A stretch of 64,000 nt of DNA from Prochlorococcus sp. AG-347-L17 (GCA_003278925.1 QCCN01000007.1:19742-83741), one strand, 5' to 3'; shown: positions 27,384-46,127, counted from the first letter of the stretch. The notes: generated by a model from the letters alone, not told the origin. Translations and numbers: made by a program.

Positions 27384-28732
27384 GCGTCACCAGTTATTGA
27401 TAATTCATCTACCCATATATGTGGAGAAATTCCACTTGTTGTTACCTCCTGGCTTGATTCAATATTTACTATATTTTTCAAAAGATATTTAATATCACCT
27501 GCTACTGTGGCAGATTCTATTGAGATTTTTTTTCCGTTTTTGTAGAGCCATCCATCAAATGGAAGAGAAAATGAACCTTGACTTGCTCTAACACCTGCAT
27601 GGATTGCATTTAACTCTTCTATATAAACAAATTCTCCCTCATAAGTAGAGTGATCTAGTGATGTTTTTAGATCAAAGTTTTCATCTGATTTTTCAACTAC
27701 GATCCAATCAGGAGATACTGAAACTTTTGATCCTAGTCCAGCGTGGCCAGTGGGAGTCGTTTTAAATATTCTTGCAGTTGATTCAGAATGTATAAAATTT
27801 TCAATTCTCCCTCTGTTAATTAGACATAGTCTTTTGGTTGGGGTTCCCTCTCCATCAAATGGTGTTGAAGAAATATTCTTTTCGTGAAGACCATCATCAT
27901 AAATATTAAGTGCTTCTGTAGATAGTTTCTCTCCAATTGAATTTTTATTAGATAAGCTCACTCCATCTATGATGCTTCTAGCATTAAACATTGAGCTAAA
28001 GGCGTTAATGATAGTTAAAAAAGACTCTGGGGAAAAACATATTAAATATTTATCAGTTTTAATAGATGAATAATTTAAATGAGAAATTGTTTTATTTGAA
28101 GCCTCTTTAATACAGGACTCTATATCTATATCATCAGCTCCATATCCAAGTTTTACGGAACCTGAACTACGAGGCTTCTTATTTTTCTCTTCTGCTCTTG
28201 CATATAAATATAGTGCTGCTTGACTTTTGGAATAACTTCGAAAGGCTCCCTCACTATTTGCATAAACTCTCTCAAAGAAACTCTCAGATAAACCATTATA
28301 TGGAACAGATTTTATGGATTCATGACTTTCTAATAATTTTACTTCCGCTTCTCTTAAAACTGTAAGTAATTTTTTTATTCCAACAGGATTTCTTTTTTTA
28401 ACTTCCTTAACTTTAATAGGATCCTTCGCTAGTGGTGAAAATTCTGTAGATTCATTCTTATTGCCGAAATCAGAAGCTATATTTGCTTGCTTAAGAGCCT
28501 TTTTAATACCAGATTCACTAATATCACTTGTTGTAGTAATACCAACTAGATTAGATTGATTCCAAACTCTTATAGTTAAAATTTGTTTTTGTGATGCCTT
28601 AAGTTGTTTAGCCTCTCCTTTGTCTACTTGCACAGAATAATCATTAGAGAAGCTTGCTCCATAATCCCATTTTCTAAGATTTAGGAAATCTGCAGCTTTG
28701 GAGATTTGAGTTGTGATTTCTCTTGAATTCAT
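27380..28732 (-). CDS. pmbA: TldE/PmbA family protein
   Basis: PFDGEGTP, TPTGHA, G.FSLP motifs; paired with tldD. Confidence 0.88.
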   Translation of the reverse strand: MNSREITTQISKAADFLNLRKWDYGASFSNDYSVQVDKGEAKQLKASQKQILTIRVWNQSNLVGITTTSDISESGIKKALKQANIASDFGNKNESTEFSPLAKDPIKVKEVKKRNPVGIKKLLTVLREAEVKLLESHESIKSVPYNGLSESFFERVYANSEGAFRSYSKSQAALYLYARAEEKNKKPRSSGSVKLGYGADDIDIESCIKEASNKTISHLNYSSIKTDKYLICFSPESFLTIINAFSSMFNARSIIDGVSLSNKNSIGEKLSTEALNIYDDGLHEKNISSTPFDGEGTPTKRLCLINRGRIENFIHSESTARIFKTTPTGHAGLGSKVSVSPDWIVVEKSDENFDLKTSLDHSTYEGEFVYIEELNAIHAGVRASQGSFSLPFDGWLYKNGKKISIESATVAGDIKYLLKNIVNIESSQEVTTSGISPHIWVDELSITGDA

Positions 28733-39204: not shown

Positions 39205-39957
39205 TTGATAAATAAAAACAATACAAACAAGTTAATAATTACATTTTTAATCTTACTTATTCTTCCATTTGTACAAAAGCAATGGTTTAATTTGTATGCA
39301 TTTAATATTAATGATATTTCCTTTTATTCAATCCTTTACTATTTAAGCGGTGCAATATGTCCATCTTTGGTGTGTTTAAACTCTTTAAATAACTATACAT
39401 ACTATAATTTTAATAAGGATAAAATTCATATTAAAAATATAATTAATGGAAAAAGATTATTATTCTTGGTAGCAATAAATTTAATATTTCTCTCTTACTT
39501 TATATCTGATTATATATATATAAATTTTGATCTTATAATTAATTTATTTCTTGAAGGATTTAATGTACCAAAACTGGATATTCTACAGTTAAGTTTTTTG
39601 ATGTTTTTAATTTCTATTTTATTAATTTTTAAGAAATCTAGGTTTTTATTAAAAAAATTAATATTGGTAAATTTTATTTTGATTTCTCTTTATCTTTGGC
39701 ATCTTCAAATTAACAATATTATTGTTGATGATCAGTTTCATATATATAGATATTTTGGTTTAAATGACTTAAATTTAATTAATCTTTTTATCCTAGTCGC
39801 CATAGAAATTTCTTTTTTTACATGGTCTTTTTTATCATATAAAACTAATTTAAGCGATTGGATAGTGCCCAAGCCTCAAAAAGGGGACATTATCCCCATT
39901 TTGAATATGTTAATTTTTTATTTTTTTATAATTATTTACTATTCAATACTTACTTAA
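39205..39957 (+). CDS. hypothetical polytopic membrane protein
   Basis: 250 aa with multiple TM segments; fills the gap between ftsH and prx. Confidence 0.7.
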   Translation: MINKNNTNKLIITFLILLILPFVQKQWFNLYAFNINDISFYSILYYLSGAICPSLVCLNSLNNYTYYNFNKDKIHIKNIINGKRLLFLVAINLIFLSYFISDYIYINFDLIINLFLEGFNVPKLDILQLSFLMFLISILLIFKKSRFLLKKLILVNFILISLYLWHLQINNIIVDDQFHIYRYFGLNDLNLINLFILVAIEISFFTWSFLSYKTNLSDWIVPKPQKGDIIPILNMLIFYFFIIIYYSILT

Positions 39958-39972
39958 ATGTTTCTAATCCTT

Positions 39973-40557
39973 CTATAGGGCAGAAAAATATTCCTTGCTA
40001 CCTTTAGGATCCTCTAACATTGTTTTCTCCCCGGGAGTCCAGTTTGCTGGACATACTTCATCTGGGTTTGCCGCCACGTATTGATAACCTTGAAGAATCC
40101 TTAGTGTTTCATCAACATTTCTGCCTACAGGAGCCTTGTTAACAGTGGTATGCATAACTACTCCCTCGGGATTGATAAGAAATAAACCTCTATCGGCCTC
40201 TCCATCATCATTAAGAACATTGTAAGCCTGGCAAATTTCCCTTTTTAAGTCAGATACTAGTGGGTAGTTAATATCACCTATTCCTCCTTCATTTCTTGGG
40301 GTTTGTATCCAAGCTAAATGGCAGTGTTTGCTATCAACTGATACCCCAAGTATTTCCGTATTAAGTGCTGAGAAGTCTTGGTATCTATCACTAAATGCAG
40401 TGATTTCAGTTGGACATACAAATGTAAAATCTAGTGGGTAAAAGAATAAAACAACCCATTTACCTCTTAGACCTGAAAGTGTAATCTCCTTAAACTCTTG
40501 ATCATATACTGCTGTAGCACTAAAGTCTGGTGCTTCTTGGCCAACTCTTAAGCTCAT
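39973..40557 (-). CDS. 2-Cys peroxiredoxin (AhpC/TSA)
   Basis: [13 protein letters not shown], second VCP, GGIG and C-terminal YF motifs. Confidence 0.97.
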
Positions 40558-40852
40558 GAAAAAATTTTTCCTTATTTAAAATATGTATGGTCTTAATGAC
40601 CGTAATAAGTATTATAATTTTATTGATAATGAATTAGCAAGTTTTTTTTTAATTCAATGAATTGGCATTATTCCTTTACTAGAAAATTTACAATTTTGAA
40701 TCATAATAAACTTTTAAAAAATCTCAAAAAAGAGTTAATTAAATATCCCATTAATAGACTTGACAATAAAAATTCTAATTAAAAGAAATTTTATTTTATT
40801 TAAGATTCCTTTAAATTCAACTCCCTATAATTAGGAATATTATTTTTTAATT

Positions 40853-41011
40853 ATGGCTAAATATATTGAAAGACTAAAGGATAAAGTTAAAATAAAAAAA
40901 TTTGATTCTAATCAACCAATTGGGGCTTGGATTTTTGTTATAGTACTGAATATAGTTGGGTTTGCGGGTTATTTTTACTTAAAGCTAAATCATATACAAC
41001 TAGGGAGTTAA
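40853..41011 (+). CDS. 52-aa single-TM protein
   Basis: MAKYIERLKDKVKIKKFDSNQPIGAWIFVIVLNIVGFAGYFYLKLNHIQLGS*. Confidence 0.6.
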   Translation: MAKYIERLKDKVKIKKFDSNQPIGAWIFVIVLNIVGFAGYFYLKLNHIQLGS

Positions 41012-41014
41012 AAC

Positions 41015-41239
41015 TTATTTTATTTCCTTTTTAATTGAGCGACAAAAATTTTTTAGCCTTTCATTACTCGTTAAGTCAGGTAAAGTCCAAATTGATTCTA
41101 TTTCAGGCAATGGATCTTCGCTCCATCCTTTGAATTCTTCAACTATAGAAGCTTTGTTTAATTTTGATATATACTTCTTGCGTTTTTTTAAATATTTTCT
41201 TATCACTATAAGATTTTCCTCAATATATTCTCTCATCAC
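41015..41239 (-). CDS. 74-aa hypothetical protein
   Basis: ORF track; ATG start; convergent with 40853..41011. Confidence 0.6.
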   Translation of the reverse strand: MMREYIEENLIVIRKYLKKRKKYISKLNKASIVEEFKGWSEDPLPEIESIWTLPDLTSNERLKNFCRSIKKEIK

Positions 41240-41299
41240 GAATATTTAGATTTATATTAATTTATCATCTAGCGAGTTATGCTTTAAAGAAAAGAACAA

Positions 41300-41470
41300 T
41301 TAGACATTTTGTACTGCTTGAAAAAGTCCAAACGAATAACCCCCTATTAGAATCCAGCCAAGTACACTTGATATTATTGTAGATCTTCTATTGTGTCTCC
41401 TTATAGCTGATTCAATCATTTCATTAACTTCATCTCTATTAAGATATTCTTTCTTTGGGTTTTTTTTCAT
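41300..41470 (-). CDS. 56-aa TM micro-protein (AIRRHN family pattern)
   Basis: MKKNPKKEYLNRDEVNEMIESAIRRHNRRSTIISSVLGWILIGGYSFGLFQAVQNV*. Confidence 0.7.
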   Translation of the reverse strand: MKKNPKKEYLNRDEVNEMIESAIRRHNRRSTIISSVLGWILIGGYSFGLFQAVQNV

Positions 41471-41669
41471 TTTTTTTTTCTTTTTACAATAAACGAATTT
41501 ATAAGAAAGTGAGTTTAAGATTTTTATTTATAAGTAAGAGTTTTATTTTTGATGATTTTATAAATATTTTTTATATTTATCATTAAATATATTATGAAAT
41601 TTTAAGAGTATTTTTTAAAATTATAAGTTAAAGTATTCACATTTAAAGTACATAGTTTTTACACAAATA

Positions 41670-41846
41670 ATGAATATTAATGATAAATCTGTTTTAGAAA
41701 AGCTTAATAAACTTATTGCTATTAATAGACTAAATAAAACTCAAATTCTTCAAATGGTGAATTTAGTTTTAATATCAAATAATATCAATGACTTAAAGGA
41801 TAACTTGAAATGGGAAAGTTATAAATCATATAATCAAAATATTTAA
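41670..41846 (+). CDS. 58-aa hypothetical protein
   Basis: MNINDKSVLEKLNKLIAINRLNKTQILQMVNLVLISNNINDLKDNLKWESYKSYNQNI*. Confidence 0.6.
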   Translation: MNINDKSVLEKLNKLIAINRLNKTQILQMVNLVLISNNINDLKDNLKWESYKSYNQNI

Positions 41847-41954
41847 ATATATATACTCATTATTTGATAATTATGAATTCTTAAAATTCACATAAGAGAT
41901 AAATAATAGTGCATTGAATAAATTAAATGTTTTAAAATAATTTATATAAGTTAT

Positions 41955-42128
41955 TCAAATAAATTTTTGATAATAATTCTTTTTATAAGAAACTTGCTCA
42001 TGATTACTATAATTAAGTGTTGTTTTCTTATCCTTGCTTAATGATTTAATTAATATTGTAGAGGTGATTATTATAATTATTATGATTAGTAAATCTCCAA
42101 CAGTAATCCCTCTCTCCTTAAGATTCAT
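41955..42128 (-). CDS. 57-aa protein with prepilin-like N-terminus
   Basis: MNLKERG/ITVGDLLIIIIIIITSTILIKSLSKDKKTTLNYSNHEQVSYKKNYYQKFI*. Confidence 0.65.
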   Translation of the reverse strand: MNLKERGITVGDLLIIIIIIITSTILIKSLSKDKKTTLNYSNHEQVSYKKNYYQKFI

Positions 42129-42294
42129 AATAAAAAATATATTTTGTTTAAATATAGCCTTTTTTTATTTGATAAAATAATATATTTAACAAACGTGCTA
42201 AAAATATATATATTAAGTAAATATAAAAATAATATAAAATTTTTAAGAGTAATATCTTTTGAATCATATAAAAATATATAGATAAATTAAATAT

Positions 42295-42474
42295 ATGGAA
42301 GTCAAAAAAAAAATTAGTAGTTCTAACACTCCTGGTTTTTTCTCTAAAGAGATGATTATCACAAAAAAATCACTTAACGAAAATCAACTCAAATTTACTT
42401 ATCAAAAACAGTTAATTTCAGATCTAGATTATAAGCACAAGGAATGGTCAAAATCGATTGACAGTAAATTTTAA
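42295..42474 (+). CDS. 59-aa hypothetical protein
   Basis: MEVKKKISSSNTPGFFSKEMIITKKSLNENQLKFTYQKQLISDLDYKHKEWSKSIDSKF*; stop overlaps the stop of the convergent ORF (TTAA). Confidence 0.5.
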   Translation: MEVKKKISSSNTPGFFSKEMIITKKSLNENQLKFTYQKQLISDLDYKHKEWSKSIDSKF

Positions 42475-42623
42475 AAGCTTTCGTTGATTATATTTAAAAG
42501 TTTATTTCTTTTATTTGTATTTATCTCTTCCCAATGAAGTGTTACTTCATCATTAATGATAGGTTTTGCTTCATAAGCAAAATACCAAAGAATAAATCCG
42601 ACAGGAAATATTAAAATATGCAT
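42471..42623 (-). CDS. 50-aa protein with N-terminal hydrophobic segment
   Basis: MHILIFPVGFILWYFAYEAKPIINDEVTLHWEEINTNKRNKLLNIINESF*. Confidence 0.6.
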   Translation of the reverse strand: MHILIFPVGFILWYFAYEAKPIINDEVTLHWEEINTNKRNKLLNIINESF

Positions 42624-42651
42624 AGCAAAATTAGTTGACTTAAATCAAATA

Positions 42652-42686
42652 TAGTGCAACACTTGTAATGTGCAAGTGTGACACTA
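42652..42686. promoter_or_regulatory. paired palindromic boxes upstream of the RHH gene (candidate operator)
   Basis: TAGTGCAACACTT (42652-42664) N9 AAGTGTGACACTA (42674-42686). Confidence 0.6.
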
Positions 42687-42701
42687 ATTTTATTTTTAAA
42701 T

Positions 42702-43067
42702 ATGCCCTCTCCGAGGAAAAGAATTGGTTTTTTGCCAAGTGAAGAAGTTCATGAGATTATTGAAAAATTGTGCACAGCTAATGAATTTAGTCAGTCAAAA
42801 GTCACAGGTTTATTGGTCGAAGAAGCGTTGAGGTCTCGAGGAGTATTAAATGACCCTTTTGGAAAAAAAATTAATGGGCAAGCGGATTTAATCAATTTTT
42901 GTTTTGATAGTGAAACATGCTCTGAAAATAATAAATCTCCAAGTAATGTGGACGAATATGCAGTTAATAAAAAAGTATTATCTGATAATATCAAATTGAT
43001 GCATGAATTTATTGAGTTTAAATATTTTAAGAAAGTCATGAAGCAAAATAACAAAATTTTTGATTAA
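42702..43067 (+). CDS. ribbon-helix-helix (CopG-like) DNA-binding protein
   Basis: MPSPRKRIGFLPSEEVHEIIEKLCTANEFSQSKVTGLLVEEALRSRG: beta-strand plus two helices; start re-called to ATG 42702. Confidence 0.72.
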   Translation: MPSPRKRIGFLPSEEVHEIIEKLCTANEFSQSKVTGLLVEEALRSRGVLNDPFGKKINGQADLINFCFDSETCSENNKSPSNVDEYAVNKKVLSDNIKLMHEFIEFKYFKKVMKQNNKIFD

Positions 43068-43068
43068 A

Positions 43069-43081
43069 TAGTGTCACACTT
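43069..43081. repeat. TAGTGTCACACTT, exact inverted copy of 42674-42686
   Basis: 13/13 reverse-complement match, starting 2 nt after the RHH stop. Confidence 0.9.
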
Positions 43082-43204
43082 CAAATATTTACATGAGATT
43101 GCTTTTCAATGGAATTTAGAAATTAAGCAATAATAAATATTTTTGATTATTTCTAATAAACTTCTTAAAGAGGGATACAAAATTAATTGAATCTTTAAAA
43201 ATTC

Positions 43205-43245
43205 AGCGGACTAAATCCTCGTGGAGATATGAACTTTAGCCCGCT
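43205..43245. other. GC-rich stem-loop in intergenic DNA (candidate sRNA or terminator)
   Basis: AGCGG-A-CTAAA ... TTTAG-C-CCGCT with an inner TCC-TCGT-GGA hairpin. Confidence 0.45.
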
Positions 43246-43331
43246 TTAAAAAAATAGCAATAAAAAATTATAAACACAATAAGTATGTAAATTTACGTTT
43301 GATTTAAAATTGGAATATAAAAACTCTAAAT

Positions 43332-43460
43332 ATGGCAGTAAGTGAATTAAATGAAGATACACAGGATCAAATATGTGATCTTCCTGAAATTCTTCAGCAA
43401 ATAGAGAAACATGAAAATAAAATTATACGAATTTTGCTTGATATGATATTTAGAAAATAG
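43332..43460 (+). CDS. 42-aa hypothetical protein, possibly prematurely truncated
   Basis: MAVSELNEDTQDQICDLPEILQQIEKHENKIIRILLDMIFRK*; frame continues EEKVVIK* and that stop overlaps the next ATG. Confidence 0.5.
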   Translation: MAVSELNEDTQDQICDLPEILQQIEKHENKIIRILLDMIFRK

Positions 43461-43480
43461 GAAGAGAAAGTAGTTATTAA

Positions 43481-43867
43481 ATGAAACGATTATTAATCTA
43501 ACTATTAGTTTTTCTTACTTTCTCAAATGTTGTTGATAACTCACATTTGTATAATTAAAGAGCACTAAAGAATCTATCGATTTAGCAAAATACCTTAAAG
43601 ATAGTTGCGTAGTTAATTATTAAGCATTATTGGTGACCTAATTGTATTAATCAAAGTGAACTACTTGGTAAGCAAGCCTACAGGGAAATTAATGTAGTTG
43701 AATGTGCAATGGAAGGGATAGCCTGTCAAAATCAATTATGCATAGATAAAAAAATTAAAGGGTTTCCGACATGGGAAATAAATAGAAAACTAATTTTAGG
43801 TGAACTTTTACTAAAAAAGTTTTCAAAGTTGACTGGATTTATAATTAAGGAACAAGTAAGAACATAA
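43481..43867 (+). pseudogene. degraded exported thioredoxin-like protein (VKOR-associated Trx domain type)
   Basis: Fragments MKRLLI*LLVFLTFS..., STKESIDLAKYLKD, AYW*PNC, ELLGKQAY, VVEC, QLCIDKKIKGFPTWEIN, SKLTGF; several stops and frameshifts. Confidence 0.8.
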
Positions 43868-43871
43868 ATAG

Positions 43872-44021
43872 TTAGAAATTAAAGGTTAATTCCTGAGTCC
43901 CTTTCACACAAATTCCAGTTGGATAATTAATTACTTTTTTTGATATTAATCCAATAATGATAGCAACTATTCTAATTCCAACAAATGCTCTGGATCTTTT
44001 GCTTAAGATAAGATATTTCAT
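43872..44021 (-). CDS. 49-aa single-TM protein
   Basis: MKYLILSKRSRAFVGIRIVAIIIGLISKKVINYPTGICVKGTQELTFNF*. Confidence 0.5.
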   Translation of the reverse strand: MKYLILSKRSRAFVGIRIVAIIIGLISKKVINYPTGICVKGTQELTFNF

Positions 44022-44356
44022 TTAGTATTTATAGTAGGGATTATGAAATTATTACTTGGATTTTTTTAAGAGAAAAACAACAAGGAACTCTAAATCTATA
44101 ATTTTTTTTAAAAATAATTTTTAAATATAAGATATCTTGAAAACACTTAACCACATAATTCTTATATTTTTTTTAGCATTTTTAGTCTGTATTTGAAGGC
44201 CTTTTTATGATTAATACGAGACTATTTCTTTATGAAAGATAAGGAATTTAATGTGACTCAAGGAATGGTTTTGTTACTTTTGAAGCCATTAAATTTACCC
44301 ACTAACTATGTTCTTAATCTCATAATTTATATATTTAACCATATTAGCAATATTTA

Positions 44357-44612
44357 TTAATAAGATTCTTCCCAAACTGGTTTAGTTTTCCTCCAACCTT
44401 GAGAGATTAATTTTTTTCAATTCATCTCTAGCTTTATCAACTTTAAGTTCTTCTCTTGTTGTCATTAGAAGTGGTTCTTTTCCTAATACACCAAGAATTC
44501 ATCCAGAGTCAATAAATATATATTCAAAAAATTTATCTTTATTTTGATTATTCTTTTAAAACCTTTTAATCCTTGAACGACTCGTATTTATAAGCAAAAA
44601 ATCTTCTTTCAA
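44357..44612 (-). pseudogene. DUF1651-like pseudogene
   Basis: LLINTSRSRIKRF*KNNQNKDKFFEYIFIDSG*ILGVLGKEPLLMTTREELKVDKARDE-(frameshift)-KKLISQGWRKTKPVWEESY*. Confidence 0.7.
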
Positions 44613-44623
44613 TCTTACTTATT

Positions 44624-44911
44624 TTATGTTTTCTCAATTGGAGCCATTGTTAATCCTTTGCTGAAGAGTTGCTCATGATATAGCTCTGCCTGTTCAAAAT
44701 TACCTCTCCATACTTCCGCCGATCCTGACTTGTCAACTTTAATAGTTAGATCCCAAGCCCTTTTTTCACTCATGCTTGGGATTATTGTTAGAAGACAATT
44801 TGCGACATGTTGAAAGGTATTAAAACTATCATCAAGAACTATTACCCTTGCTTCTGAATATTTTGCTTTAGATTTCTTTGGATCTAAGACTGTACCGAGT
44901 GAATTAAACAT
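44624..44911 (-). CDS. clpS: ATP-dependent Clp protease adaptor ClpS
   Basis: RVIVLDDSFNTFQHVANCL, GSAEVW.G..EQAELY, GLTMAP. Confidence 0.92.
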   Translation of the reverse strand: MFNSLGTVLDPKKSKAKYSEARVIVLDDSFNTFQHVANCLLTIIPSMSEKRAWDLTIKVDKSGSAEVWRGNFEQAELYHEQLFSKGLTMAPIEKT

Positions 44912-44978
44912 TAATTTCTGTATAGGATTAAGTAAATTAAATCTTCACCTAAGTTTTTCAATCGAGAAGTATTTGATA

Positions 44979-45052
<74 letters not shown>

Positions 45053-45081
45053 ATGAGAATATTGTAAGGCATTGATTGTAC

Positions 45082-45564
45082 TTAATTACCATTTTGAAAA
45101 TTTATTTGTTTATGGGCCTCATATATAGCAATTCCGCATGCTACAGAAAGGTTTAGACTCCTAACACCTTTTTGATCATTATTCCTAGTCTGTAAATTTG
45201 GCATAAATATTGATATTAAAAAGTCGCTTTTGTCAATAATTGAATCCGGCAATCCTGAATCTTCTCTCCCAAATAGCAAAATATCATCTTTCTTAAATTT
45301 AAAATCCTTCAAATATAATCCATTTTTTTTACTAAAAGAAATTATTCTTTTTGTTTTTTTTGACGCCAAAAATTTTTCATAATTCTCATGCTTATTAACA
45401 GTAACGAGAGGCCAATAGTCTAATCCTGCTCTTTTTAAATATTTATCTTCTAGTTTAAAACCCAAGGGCTCTATAAGATTTAAAGGTATATTAAACGCAG
45501 CACATGATCTGGCAATATTTCCAGTATTTTGTGGAATTCTAGGTTCAAAAAGAGCGACTTCCAA
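45082..45564 (-). CDS. trmL: tRNA (cytidine/uridine-34-2'-O)-methyltransferase, SpoU family
   Basis: EPRIPQNTGNIAR, RAGLDYW, FGRE..GLP, RSLNLS. Confidence 0.92.
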   Translation of the reverse strand: MEVALFEPRIPQNTGNIARSCAAFNIPLNLIEPLGFKLEDKYLKRAGLDYWPLVTVNKHENYEKFLASKKTKRIISFSKKNGLYLKDFKFKKDDILLFGREDSGLPDSIIDKSDFLISIFMPNLQTRNNDQKGVRSLNLSVACGIAIYEAHKQINFQNGN

Positions 45565-45566
45565 TT

Positions 45567-46127
45567 TTAATTAGGTATTTCAATACTTATTTCATCTATT
45601 TTGATTGCTCTTCCGTTTATTGCCAACCAATTATCTTTTGATATTTGGGTTATTCTCTTTTGAAGTTCGCCGATTCTTTCAATATAAGTATTACCAATTT
45701 TATATTCAGAAACAAGACTCCAACCTACTTGTTCTCCAACAATAATTGTTATGCTTACTCTTTTCATTAAGAGACTTATAAGTGAATTCATTTTTGTTGA
45801 CCATTCATTTTGTTCCTTGCCAATATTTTTCATAACGAATCCGCCAATAGAATCTATTAATAATGGACCTTCTTCTTTCTTTAATGTATTTAATAGATCT
45901 GTTGTTTCTATTAATTTCCAATCTTTTGGCCTTCTTTTTCGATGTAGATTAATTTTATATTGCCATTCTTTATCATCCAAATTGTTTTCTGATAAAGCAA
46001 CATATGATAATTTTTTTACATCCTTTGCAAGATACTCTGCGAATTCACTTTTACCGCTCTTTGTCCCCCCTGTAATAAATACTATATGAGATGAATATTC
46101 ACTAATACTTAAATCTTGGGTATTCAT
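45567..46127 (-). CDS. cobU: adenosylcobinamide kinase / phosphate guanylyltransferase
   Basis: TGGTKSGKSEFAE, HRKRRP, LIDSIG, EQVGWSLV. Confidence 0.92.
   Translation of the reverse strand: MNTQDLSISEYSSHIVFITGGTKSGKSEFAEYLAKDVKKLSYVALSENNLDDKEWQYKINLHRKRRPKDWKLIETTDLLNTLKKEEGPLLIDSIGGFVMKNIGKEQNEWSTKMNSLISLLMKRVSITIIVGEQVGWSLVSEYKIGNTYIERIGELQKRITQISKDNWLAINGRAIKIDEISIEIPN

Follow-up and report, generated by a model that had tools for sequence, protein, structure and literature searches.

A small gene for a 121-amino-acid (aa) protein lies at positions 42702..43067 (+) of a 64,000-nucleotide (nt) stretch of Prochlorococcus sp. AG-347-L17 DNA (GCA_003278925.1, QCCN01000007.1:19742-83741; the window), which derives from a high-light Prochlorococcus with a whole assembly of 1.517 Mb. 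The gene, predicted to encode a repressor of the ribbon-helix-helix (RHH) type, is referred to as P1, and its two paralogues in the same genome as P2 and P3. Three short palindromic boxes, to none of which a strand is assigned, accompany it. Box B1 (42652-42664, TAGTGCAACACTT, core AGTG-CAA-CACT) is situated between two back-to-back -10 elements. Box B2 (42674-42686, AAGTGTGACACTA) covers the RHH gene's predicted start together with its 5' leader, with its 3' edge 15 nt before the ATG at 42702. Box B3 (43069-43081, TAGTGTCACACTT), a putative post-stop operator, begins at stop+2, a single base separating it from the TAA stop codon (43065-43067). B1 starts 22 base pairs (bp) upstream of B2, and in this strain B3 is the exact reverse complement of B2 at 13/13 positions. 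An earlier note, made from the sequence alone, had placed the three boxes at these positions, with the reverse complement of B2 after the stop and a third copy 22 bp upstream, and the sequence bears out this description.

A divergent partner gene occupies 42471..42623 (-) and encodes a 50-aa single-pass membrane protein that reads MHILIFPVGFILWYFAYEAKP... and has a charged tail; its MED4 orthologue is CAP16411. The ATG of the partner is 67-78 nt from the RHH ATG over the P1 and P2 modules, the distance being 68-78 nt in 14/14 P1 loci, and the partner exists as an annotated protein in both MED4 and MIT9515. An analogous 46-52-aa single-pass membrane protein is encoded in the same place and on the other strand at P2 (CAP16397 in MED4). 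Homology between the P1 and P2 membrane partners is suggestive at most in an hhalign comparison (P=0.013, probability 3%), and the partner has no Pfam or PADLOC match and matches no toxin family.

On comparative sequence grounds, the boxes, of the form AGTG-N3-CACT, are very probably operators of this RHH family. The best overall explanation of the locus, with a probability of about 0.7, is that the RHH protein is an autorepressor, that B1 and B2 act on two divergent promoters, and that B3 serves as an auxiliary operator.

Conservation of the boxes and promoter layout

The box survey covered 93 P1 loci, drawn from 80 species genomes and from more divergent clades down to 42% protein identity. 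The boxes are kept in all 93, with B3 located 0-30 nt past the stop. B1, described in the earlier note as a degenerate copy, is in fact the most conserved of the three: its core AGTGCAACACT is identical in 90/93 P1 loci and in every P2 locus, and its spacing to B2 is 22 bp in 92/93 P1 loci. The centre base of B2 is unconstrained (G in 65 loci, C in 17-19 and T in 6), and B2 reads AGTGTTACAAT in the MED4-type clade. The B3 core AGTGTCACACT is present in 84/93 loci and starts 2 nt past the stop in 82/93; in the MED4-type clade B3 follows the stop directly or overlaps it, the MED4 form, TAGTGTTACACT, overlapping the stop codon itself. The perfect 13-bp inverted repeat that had first drawn notice is true of this strain but proved to be a lineage peculiarity. 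When complementarity between B2 and B3 was counted over 92 P1 loci, 13/13 was found in 8 and 12/13 in 49. To judge from these alignments, selection acts on the 11-bp palindromic core and not on the 13/13 repeat.

B3 is kept at the stop despite a downstream neighbour that differs between clades, being a hairpin and small open reading frame (ORF) in HLII strains and a convergent transfer RNA (tRNA) gene in three other loci. In the latter, which belong to MIT9515-type clades (L106, L109 and L111), the opposite-strand tRNA gene ends or begins ~15-25 nt from B3, so that the repressor gene and the tRNA gene converge on the box.

The motif is also confined in its genomic distribution. Allowing at most one mismatch, AGTGTNACACT occurs at only three sites in the window, namely B1, B2 and B3 (0.81 expected), and the exact core AGTGT-N-ACACT is found at B2 and B3 only across the whole 1.517-Mb genome. 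The looser AGTG-N3-CACT has 11 genome-wide sites, of which 3 are at P1 and 2 at P2, while the remainder are apparently random; the looser motif is enriched only at P1 and P2. From -500 to +300 of each module, no recurring box other than B1, B2 and B3 was found. A regulon beyond the family was considered and rejected: away from the family, a perfect B1 core occurs just once, in the coding sequence of galE at a conserved SSSATLY motif, and was judged to be a chance occurrence.

The boxes are interleaved with candidate promoter elements on both strands. On the plus strand, the hexamer TTGACT (42635..42640) is the candidate -35 of the RHH gene; it is located 17 bp upstream of the AACACT in B1 and 23 bp upstream of TGTAAT, and is invariant in the P1 and P2 promoters of all clades. 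TGTAAT itself (42664..42669, +), which is TATAAT in most strains, is a putative -10-like hexamer of the RHH gene and is conserved between B1 and B2. On the minus strand, the divergent -10 TATATT (42648..42653) overlaps B1 by 1 nt, with a start predicted near 42640 by alignment to MED4. A divergent -35, TTGCAC (42670..42675, -; TTGACT in P2), abuts B2 and is separated from TATATT by a 16-bp spacer, as read from the sequence and anchored on the MED4 start sites.

These start sites were mapped in MED4 (Read et al. 2017, PMC5607370, supplementary files 12-15, four tables) and placed on the AG-347-L17 sequence by alignment. The tables list two 'orphan' sites, 815652(-) and 769201(-), in the P1 and P2 modules respectively (PMC5607370). 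Each is 8 nt beyond the TATATT hexamer and 16-17 nt upstream of the partner ATG. The overlap of the conserved palindromes with promoter elements speaks for operators, and the divergent -10 at B1 is confirmed by the MED4 start sites.

The RHH protein and its paralogues

The modelled N-terminal domain supports the RHH assignment made in the earlier note. The full-length AlphaFold2 model has an extended N-terminus, helices at residues 14-27 and 31-45, disorder over residues 46-89 and a long helix at residues 90-117. The RHH domain corresponds to residues 1-47 (42702..42842, +), with the ribbon RKRIGFLP followed by the first two helices, as identified with AlphaFold2 and Foldseek; the ribbon strand appears as an extended coil in single-chain models. 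Modelled alone, residues 1-50 reach a predicted local distance difference test score (pLDDT) of 89.5. A Foldseek search with this domain placed CopG 1ea4 (TM 0.71/0.78, root-mean-square deviation (rmsd) 1.5 A, probability 0.98) and Arc 1par on top, and nearly all of the top 45 matches are RHH proteins; the full-length model gives the same picture. The E-values of ~0.3 reflect the tiny size of the domain.

Conservation is concentrated in MPxxRKRIGFLP...LSQSKVTGILVEEAL, which comprises the ribbon and two helices, and in the C-terminal amphipathic helix of residues 90-117 (42969..43052, +; AlphaFold2 model and alignment) with its conserved F-x-x-F-K-x-F-K, and the linker between them is hypervariable. 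On the evidence of the model, the C-terminal helix is a candidate dimer-dimer contact that may mediate oligomerisation.

The family is a narrow one. A library of 1.8 billion representatives yielded only 198 matching proteins at E<=0.001, which indicates that the family is small and lineage-restricted, and all 5465 clusters of close relatives are unnamed. Exact look-ups of the orthologues in MED4 (PMM0858, CAE19317), MIT9515 (P9515_09421) and MIT9312 (ABB50001) returned 'hypothetical' in each case. A literature search for the box sequences and for PMM0858 and PMM0734 found nothing relevant in main texts, and no description of the family, its motif or its partners was found in the searchable literature.

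Within high-light Prochlorococcus the gene is widespread. Among 92 high-quality genomes of the genus, 74 match P1 at E<=1e-25, and at E<=0.001 all of 11 further genomes (9 of them from the 18 under the cutoff) have a family match. Eight of these 11 carry full-length orthologues of 42-51% identity; the remaining three consist of a shortened match with an in-frame TAG (G169) and two genomes with P2-type matches only (G208 and G224). On these sequence matches, P1 is a core and syntenic gene of high-light Prochlorococcus, carried by almost all of them.

Each high-light genome has three family members. P2, ~40% identical to the P1 protein, is located at C13:28005-28181(-) in this genome. In MED4 it spans 769252-769620, where it is missing from the original annotation, and in MIT9312 and MIT9515 it carries a 'BdrC3-like' label. 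Its promoter has the same skeleton as that of P1, TTGACTTA-N9-AATAT-AGTGCAACACT-N11-AGTGCYGAACT, and a post-stop box is found 4-30 nt past the stop. This box is AGTGTTGCACT, the exact reverse complement of B1, in MED4-type strains, and is split by a 9-nt insertion in HLII strains. A second whole module can be seen in the region C13:~27750-28300 (L097), with a divergent 49-51-aa membrane protein gene, B1, B2, a 132-aa RHH paralogue and a split box, AAGTGTTGC-TAAGTGATG-CACT. Two lineages at ~40% identity have thus retained one three-site layout, and nothing else argues as strongly that B3 has a function and is linked to the gene.

P3 is PMM0734 in MED4, annotated 'copG family', and C4:72095-72247 in this genome (L103). 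Only one box, AAGTGTTACAAT, accompanies it; there is neither a 3' box nor a membrane partner, and the C-terminus differs (DIELANKINILKESGLI). The type-A C-terminal helix, the partner gene, the double operator and the 3' operator co-occur in P1 and P2, whereas P3 has none of them. The PMM0734 start site is 15 nt upstream of its ATG in the MED4 tables (PMC5607370), which makes the TACAAT inside the P3 box its -10. The ribbon sequence is nearly identical in P1, P2 and P3, and cross-regulation among the paralogues is therefore likely.

PMM1176 ('HTH protein, copG family'), which is reported to be dark-induced and to appear in circadian iModulons, was considered as a further member and rejected: it is absent from the P1 protein searches and its locus tag differs from those of the three paralogues. 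Expression data for Prochlorococcus 'copG' are for this reason not transferable to the present family.

An autoregulatory model and its rivals

In the proposed mechanism, the AGTG-N3-CACT boxes would serve P1 and its two paralogues, all of which have the same DNA-reading ribbon. Of the two -10s that flank B1, one would belong to the repressor gene and the other to the membrane-protein gene. B2, two helical turns from B1, would cover the repressor start region and abut the divergent -35. Because B1 and B2 are positioned on both promoters, occupied boxes would shut both, giving negative autoregulation together with control of the partner. At B3, acting as an auxiliary operator, a bound dimer would pair with promoter-bound dimers via the C-terminal helix; bridging through the ~45-residue flexible linker would place the ~0.4-kb gene in a DNA loop and increase the occupancy of the operators. 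This is the favoured role for B3, though at somewhat less than even odds. The earlier note had offered autoregulatory operators at both gene ends, with looping, as one of two readings. The operator part has gained strong comparative support from boxes in every clade, the same layout at P2 and the overlap with promoters, but looping could only be inferred and phasing is not conserved.

Several observations weigh against this explanation. A rigid loop needs constant helical phasing, but the B2-B3 distance drifts continuously, from 387 to 396 bp in P1 and from 383 to 438 bp in P2 (P2 differences of up to 55 bp), with a continuous P1 spread of 389-395 bp in the phasing test, and no conserved phasing was detected over the unique P1 distances (Rayleigh R = 0.10); a disordered linker could make bridging independent of helical phase. 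No AGTG-N3-CACT was found upstream or post-stop in the orthologues from the low-light LLI-type genus (28 loci, L143-L170). As far as these sequences indicate, the operator code, or regulation itself, changed between the high-light and LLI-type clades. The promoter elements that overlap B1 may contribute to its invariance as strongly as protein binding does. No primary start site for PMM0858 or P2 is listed in the four MED4 tables (PMC5607370), which is compatible with tight repression but could equally reflect low expression or the detection threshold. Finally, the RHH (CopG/Arc/MetJ) fold is accepted on structural grounds, from the models, whereas curated sequence models are weak or silent. 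P1 matches Pfam RHH_5 at E=0.25 (11.5 bits, the cut-off being 26), E=0.062 was obtained for one other member of the family, P2 matches a PHROG 'CopG-like repressor' family at E=0.0013, and searches of NCBIfam, PADLOC and the PDB by sequence and profile gave no match for the RHH protein.

The LLI-type orthologues retain the RHH domain and an F-x-x-F-K-type C-terminal helix. An alternative palindrome in their loci (TTGAAATTCAA and variants) was inconsistent over the 28 loci and was dropped.

The foremost rival to the auxiliary-operator explanation, though rather unlikely, is that B3 is a roadblock or boundary, at which the repressor, bound past its own stop, halts RNA polymerase and so ends the repressor transcript or blocks transcription from downstream. 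To our knowledge, Prochlorococcus has no Rho and few intrinsic terminators. The position of the B3 core at the stop agrees with such a role, as do the convergent tRNA genes of three clades and the drifting B2-B3 distance, helical phasing being irrelevant to a roadblock. A promoter and terminator consensus scan was uninformative at the boxes and detected no terminator-like site in 42300-43700, which again favours a protein-dependent boundary, but near B3 the MED4 tables contain no start site on the antisense strand. The gene downstream of P2 is co-directional, so that one rationale fails to cover both paralogues, and an abundant repressor would have its own promoter off, leaving little for a self-terminator to stop. 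It is decidedly unlikely that the boxes are bound by a different regulator, with the RHH genes as its targets and not autoregulated. An identical B1 at two paralogues would fit a common upstream regulator; on the other side, the motif is essentially confined to genes of this one family, RHH repressors such as TrcR normally have palindromes over their own promoters, and Prochlorococcus has very few other regulators. B3 might also be the operator of a transcript that starts within the gene's 3' end or shortly beyond it, as a weak internal MED4 start at 816028(+), 47 nt before B3 (~100 reads, 2/4 tables), and an ATTAAT after B3 in most HLII strains that mirrors B1-TATAAT could suggest. This is highly unlikely, since the start is at the detection threshold and in AT-rich coding sequence for the conserved FKYFK, the hexamer past B3 is not conserved (TCAAAT here, others elsewhere), and B3 stays constant while the downstream content varies by clade.

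Two further rivals take the inverted repeat itself as the functional unit. Pairing at the RNA level, in which B2 in the 5' leader and B3 in the 3' untranslated region form a messenger RNA loop affecting stability or translation, would exploit the full complementarity over 13 nt in this strain. It is a very improbable explanation: the scarcity of 13/13 loci counts against it, 19 loci have an unpairable C/C centre, a possible compensatory case occurs once only, the MED4-type B2 (ACAAT) is uncompensated in B3, and the complement of the P2 post-stop box is not B2 but B1, which lies in the promoter or upstream of it. The complementarity of B2 and B3 follows from each box being itself a palindrome. 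The other reading of the earlier note was a one-gene mobile cassette within an island, with the repeats as its ends. A single small gene flanked by an inverted repeat, and two paralogous copies with boxes at both ends, give this idea its appeal, but it is practically untenable, and for present-day mobility it is refuted. The 6.3 kb from 39700 to 46030 form one colinear ~89%-identity alignment in all 56 loci with full flanks; comparison of these loci revealed no presence/absence breakpoint at the repeats, and the surroundings are a single segment and not a variable island. Each paralogue keeps a single, fixed position across all clades, and there are no dispersed copies of the box, the exact core having only its two genomic sites. 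Homology between the P1 and P2 promoters reaches at least 22 bp outside B1, past the supposedly terminal box, and takes in the divergent partner gene. A tblastn search of a phage collection found no phage- or plasmid-like relative. The colinearity, the fixed loci, the lack of dispersed copies and the homology beyond B1 together exclude the cassette.

An extension of the autorepressor model would make P1 and P2 two copies of an undescribed two-gene switch, in which the acidic cytoplasmic tail of the ~50-aa membrane protein captures the basic C-terminal RHH helix and keeps it at the membrane (anti-repressor sequestration), the RHH protein at B1, B2 and B3 represses both promoters and roadblocks its own stop, and the three paralogues form a cross-regulated circuit. 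This is unlikely; if true, paralogues with a common operator code would regulate one another in a free-living cell that is among the poorest in regulators. No photosynthetic cell on Earth is more abundant than Prochlorococcus, and it possesses very few transcription factors. The analysis identifies in it a three-member, clade-specific family of uncharacterised RHH regulators, PMM0858, the unannotated MED4 paralogue at 769252 and PMM0734. It also provides a putative operator code, AGTG-N3-CACT, a promoter geometry and small membrane-protein partners that had previously been unlinked. The stop-codon box, kept in two paralogues through the whole high-light radiation, is an unusual placement for a chromosomal repressor, and the module offers a small, clean system for the study of loops that enclose a gene, or of transcript boundaries set by a protein, in a bacterium without Rho.

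Known systems and genomic surroundings

The closest structural parallels are CopG of pMV158 and P22 Arc/Mnt. The predicted fold superposes on CopG and Arc with TM ~0.7-0.78 and rmsd 1.5-2.4 A, and in both cases a small repressor, here a predicted one, is associated with short palindromic operators, here putative, over its own promoter. An RHH domain with a C-terminal helix behind it, through which two dimers could be joined, is common to Mnt and the present protein, and P22 immI has two overlapping divergent promoters that share operators, an arrangement similar to the one proposed here. The differences from CopG and Arc are equally clear: there is no significant sequence similarity, a ~45-residue disordered linker is present, the operator AGTG-N3-CACT differs, an extra conserved box lies past the stop, and the gene is chromosomal, core and Prochlorococcus-specific rather than of phage or plasmid origin.

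For the distal box, the nearest precedents are the lac operon, where O2 is 401 bp downstream of O1, and phage lambda, where OR and OL bracket the cI operon; AmrZ, a Pseudomonas RHH protein, oligomerises via its C-terminus. As in lac and lambda, a promoter operator, here a putative one, has a counterpart of identical sequence a few hundred bp further downstream, and as in lambda the repressor's own gene would be inside the putative loop. AmrZ is among the Foldseek fold matches obtained here. Compared with these systems, looping at P1 is an inferred property, the distance is unphased, and a distal site exactly at the stop codon is a feature of the present locus only.

Among cyanobacteria, TrcR (All0854) of Anabaena PCC 7120 is an RHH protein confined to cyanobacteria and an autorepressor that acts through a conserved motif overlapping the -10 and the start of its promoter, and TrcR and its sites are reported to be missing in Prochlorococcus (PMC10272220). 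The TrcR motif ATACTACACTTGTATTAC shares a 9-mer, ACACTTGTA, with B1 plus the -10 in this strain; beyond this 9-nt overlap no TrcR-type motif was found at the P1 promoter, where the conserved core is AGTG-N3-CACT. The symmetry of the TrcR motif differs, the TrcR regulon is wider (including the trn operon), and no 3' operator has been described for TrcR.

Type II RHH antitoxins (ParD, CopA, MazE-like) combine an RHH N-terminal domain with a flexible, partner-binding C-terminal region, an autoregulated promoter with palindromes and a small adjacent gene, a set of parts that the predicted P1 module resembles, and several are among the Foldseek matches. A type II toxin-antitoxin pair was nonetheless rejected: the partner is transcribed divergently rather than together with the RHH gene, its product is a 50-aa membrane protein that matches no toxin family, and the module is core, single-locus and vertically inherited.

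In the wider neighbourhood, a near-invariant hairpin, AGCGGACTAAATCCTCGTGGAGATATGAACyTTAGCCCGCT, is located at 43205-43245, ~140 nt past B3. It folds better on the minus strand (-16.8 vs -13.1 kcal/mol), where GAAUUUUU follows, and in one divergent strain (L087) a C to T change in the stem replaces an A-C mismatch by a perfect pair. The hairpin matches nothing in Rfam, and an Rfam scan of 40000-46000 returned one tRNA only, with no RNA family at the boxes or at the hairpin. The hairpin is probably the terminator of a leftward transcript or a small RNA. In MED4, strong 'orphan' start sites with 1000-2200 reads are listed on both sides of PMM0858, at 814913(+), 816976(+) and 817333(+), in sequence that contains only micro-ORFs (PMC5607370). 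They correspond to the AT-rich region 40600-44600 of the window, which points to small RNAs or small-protein genes that have escaped annotation in the vicinity of the module.

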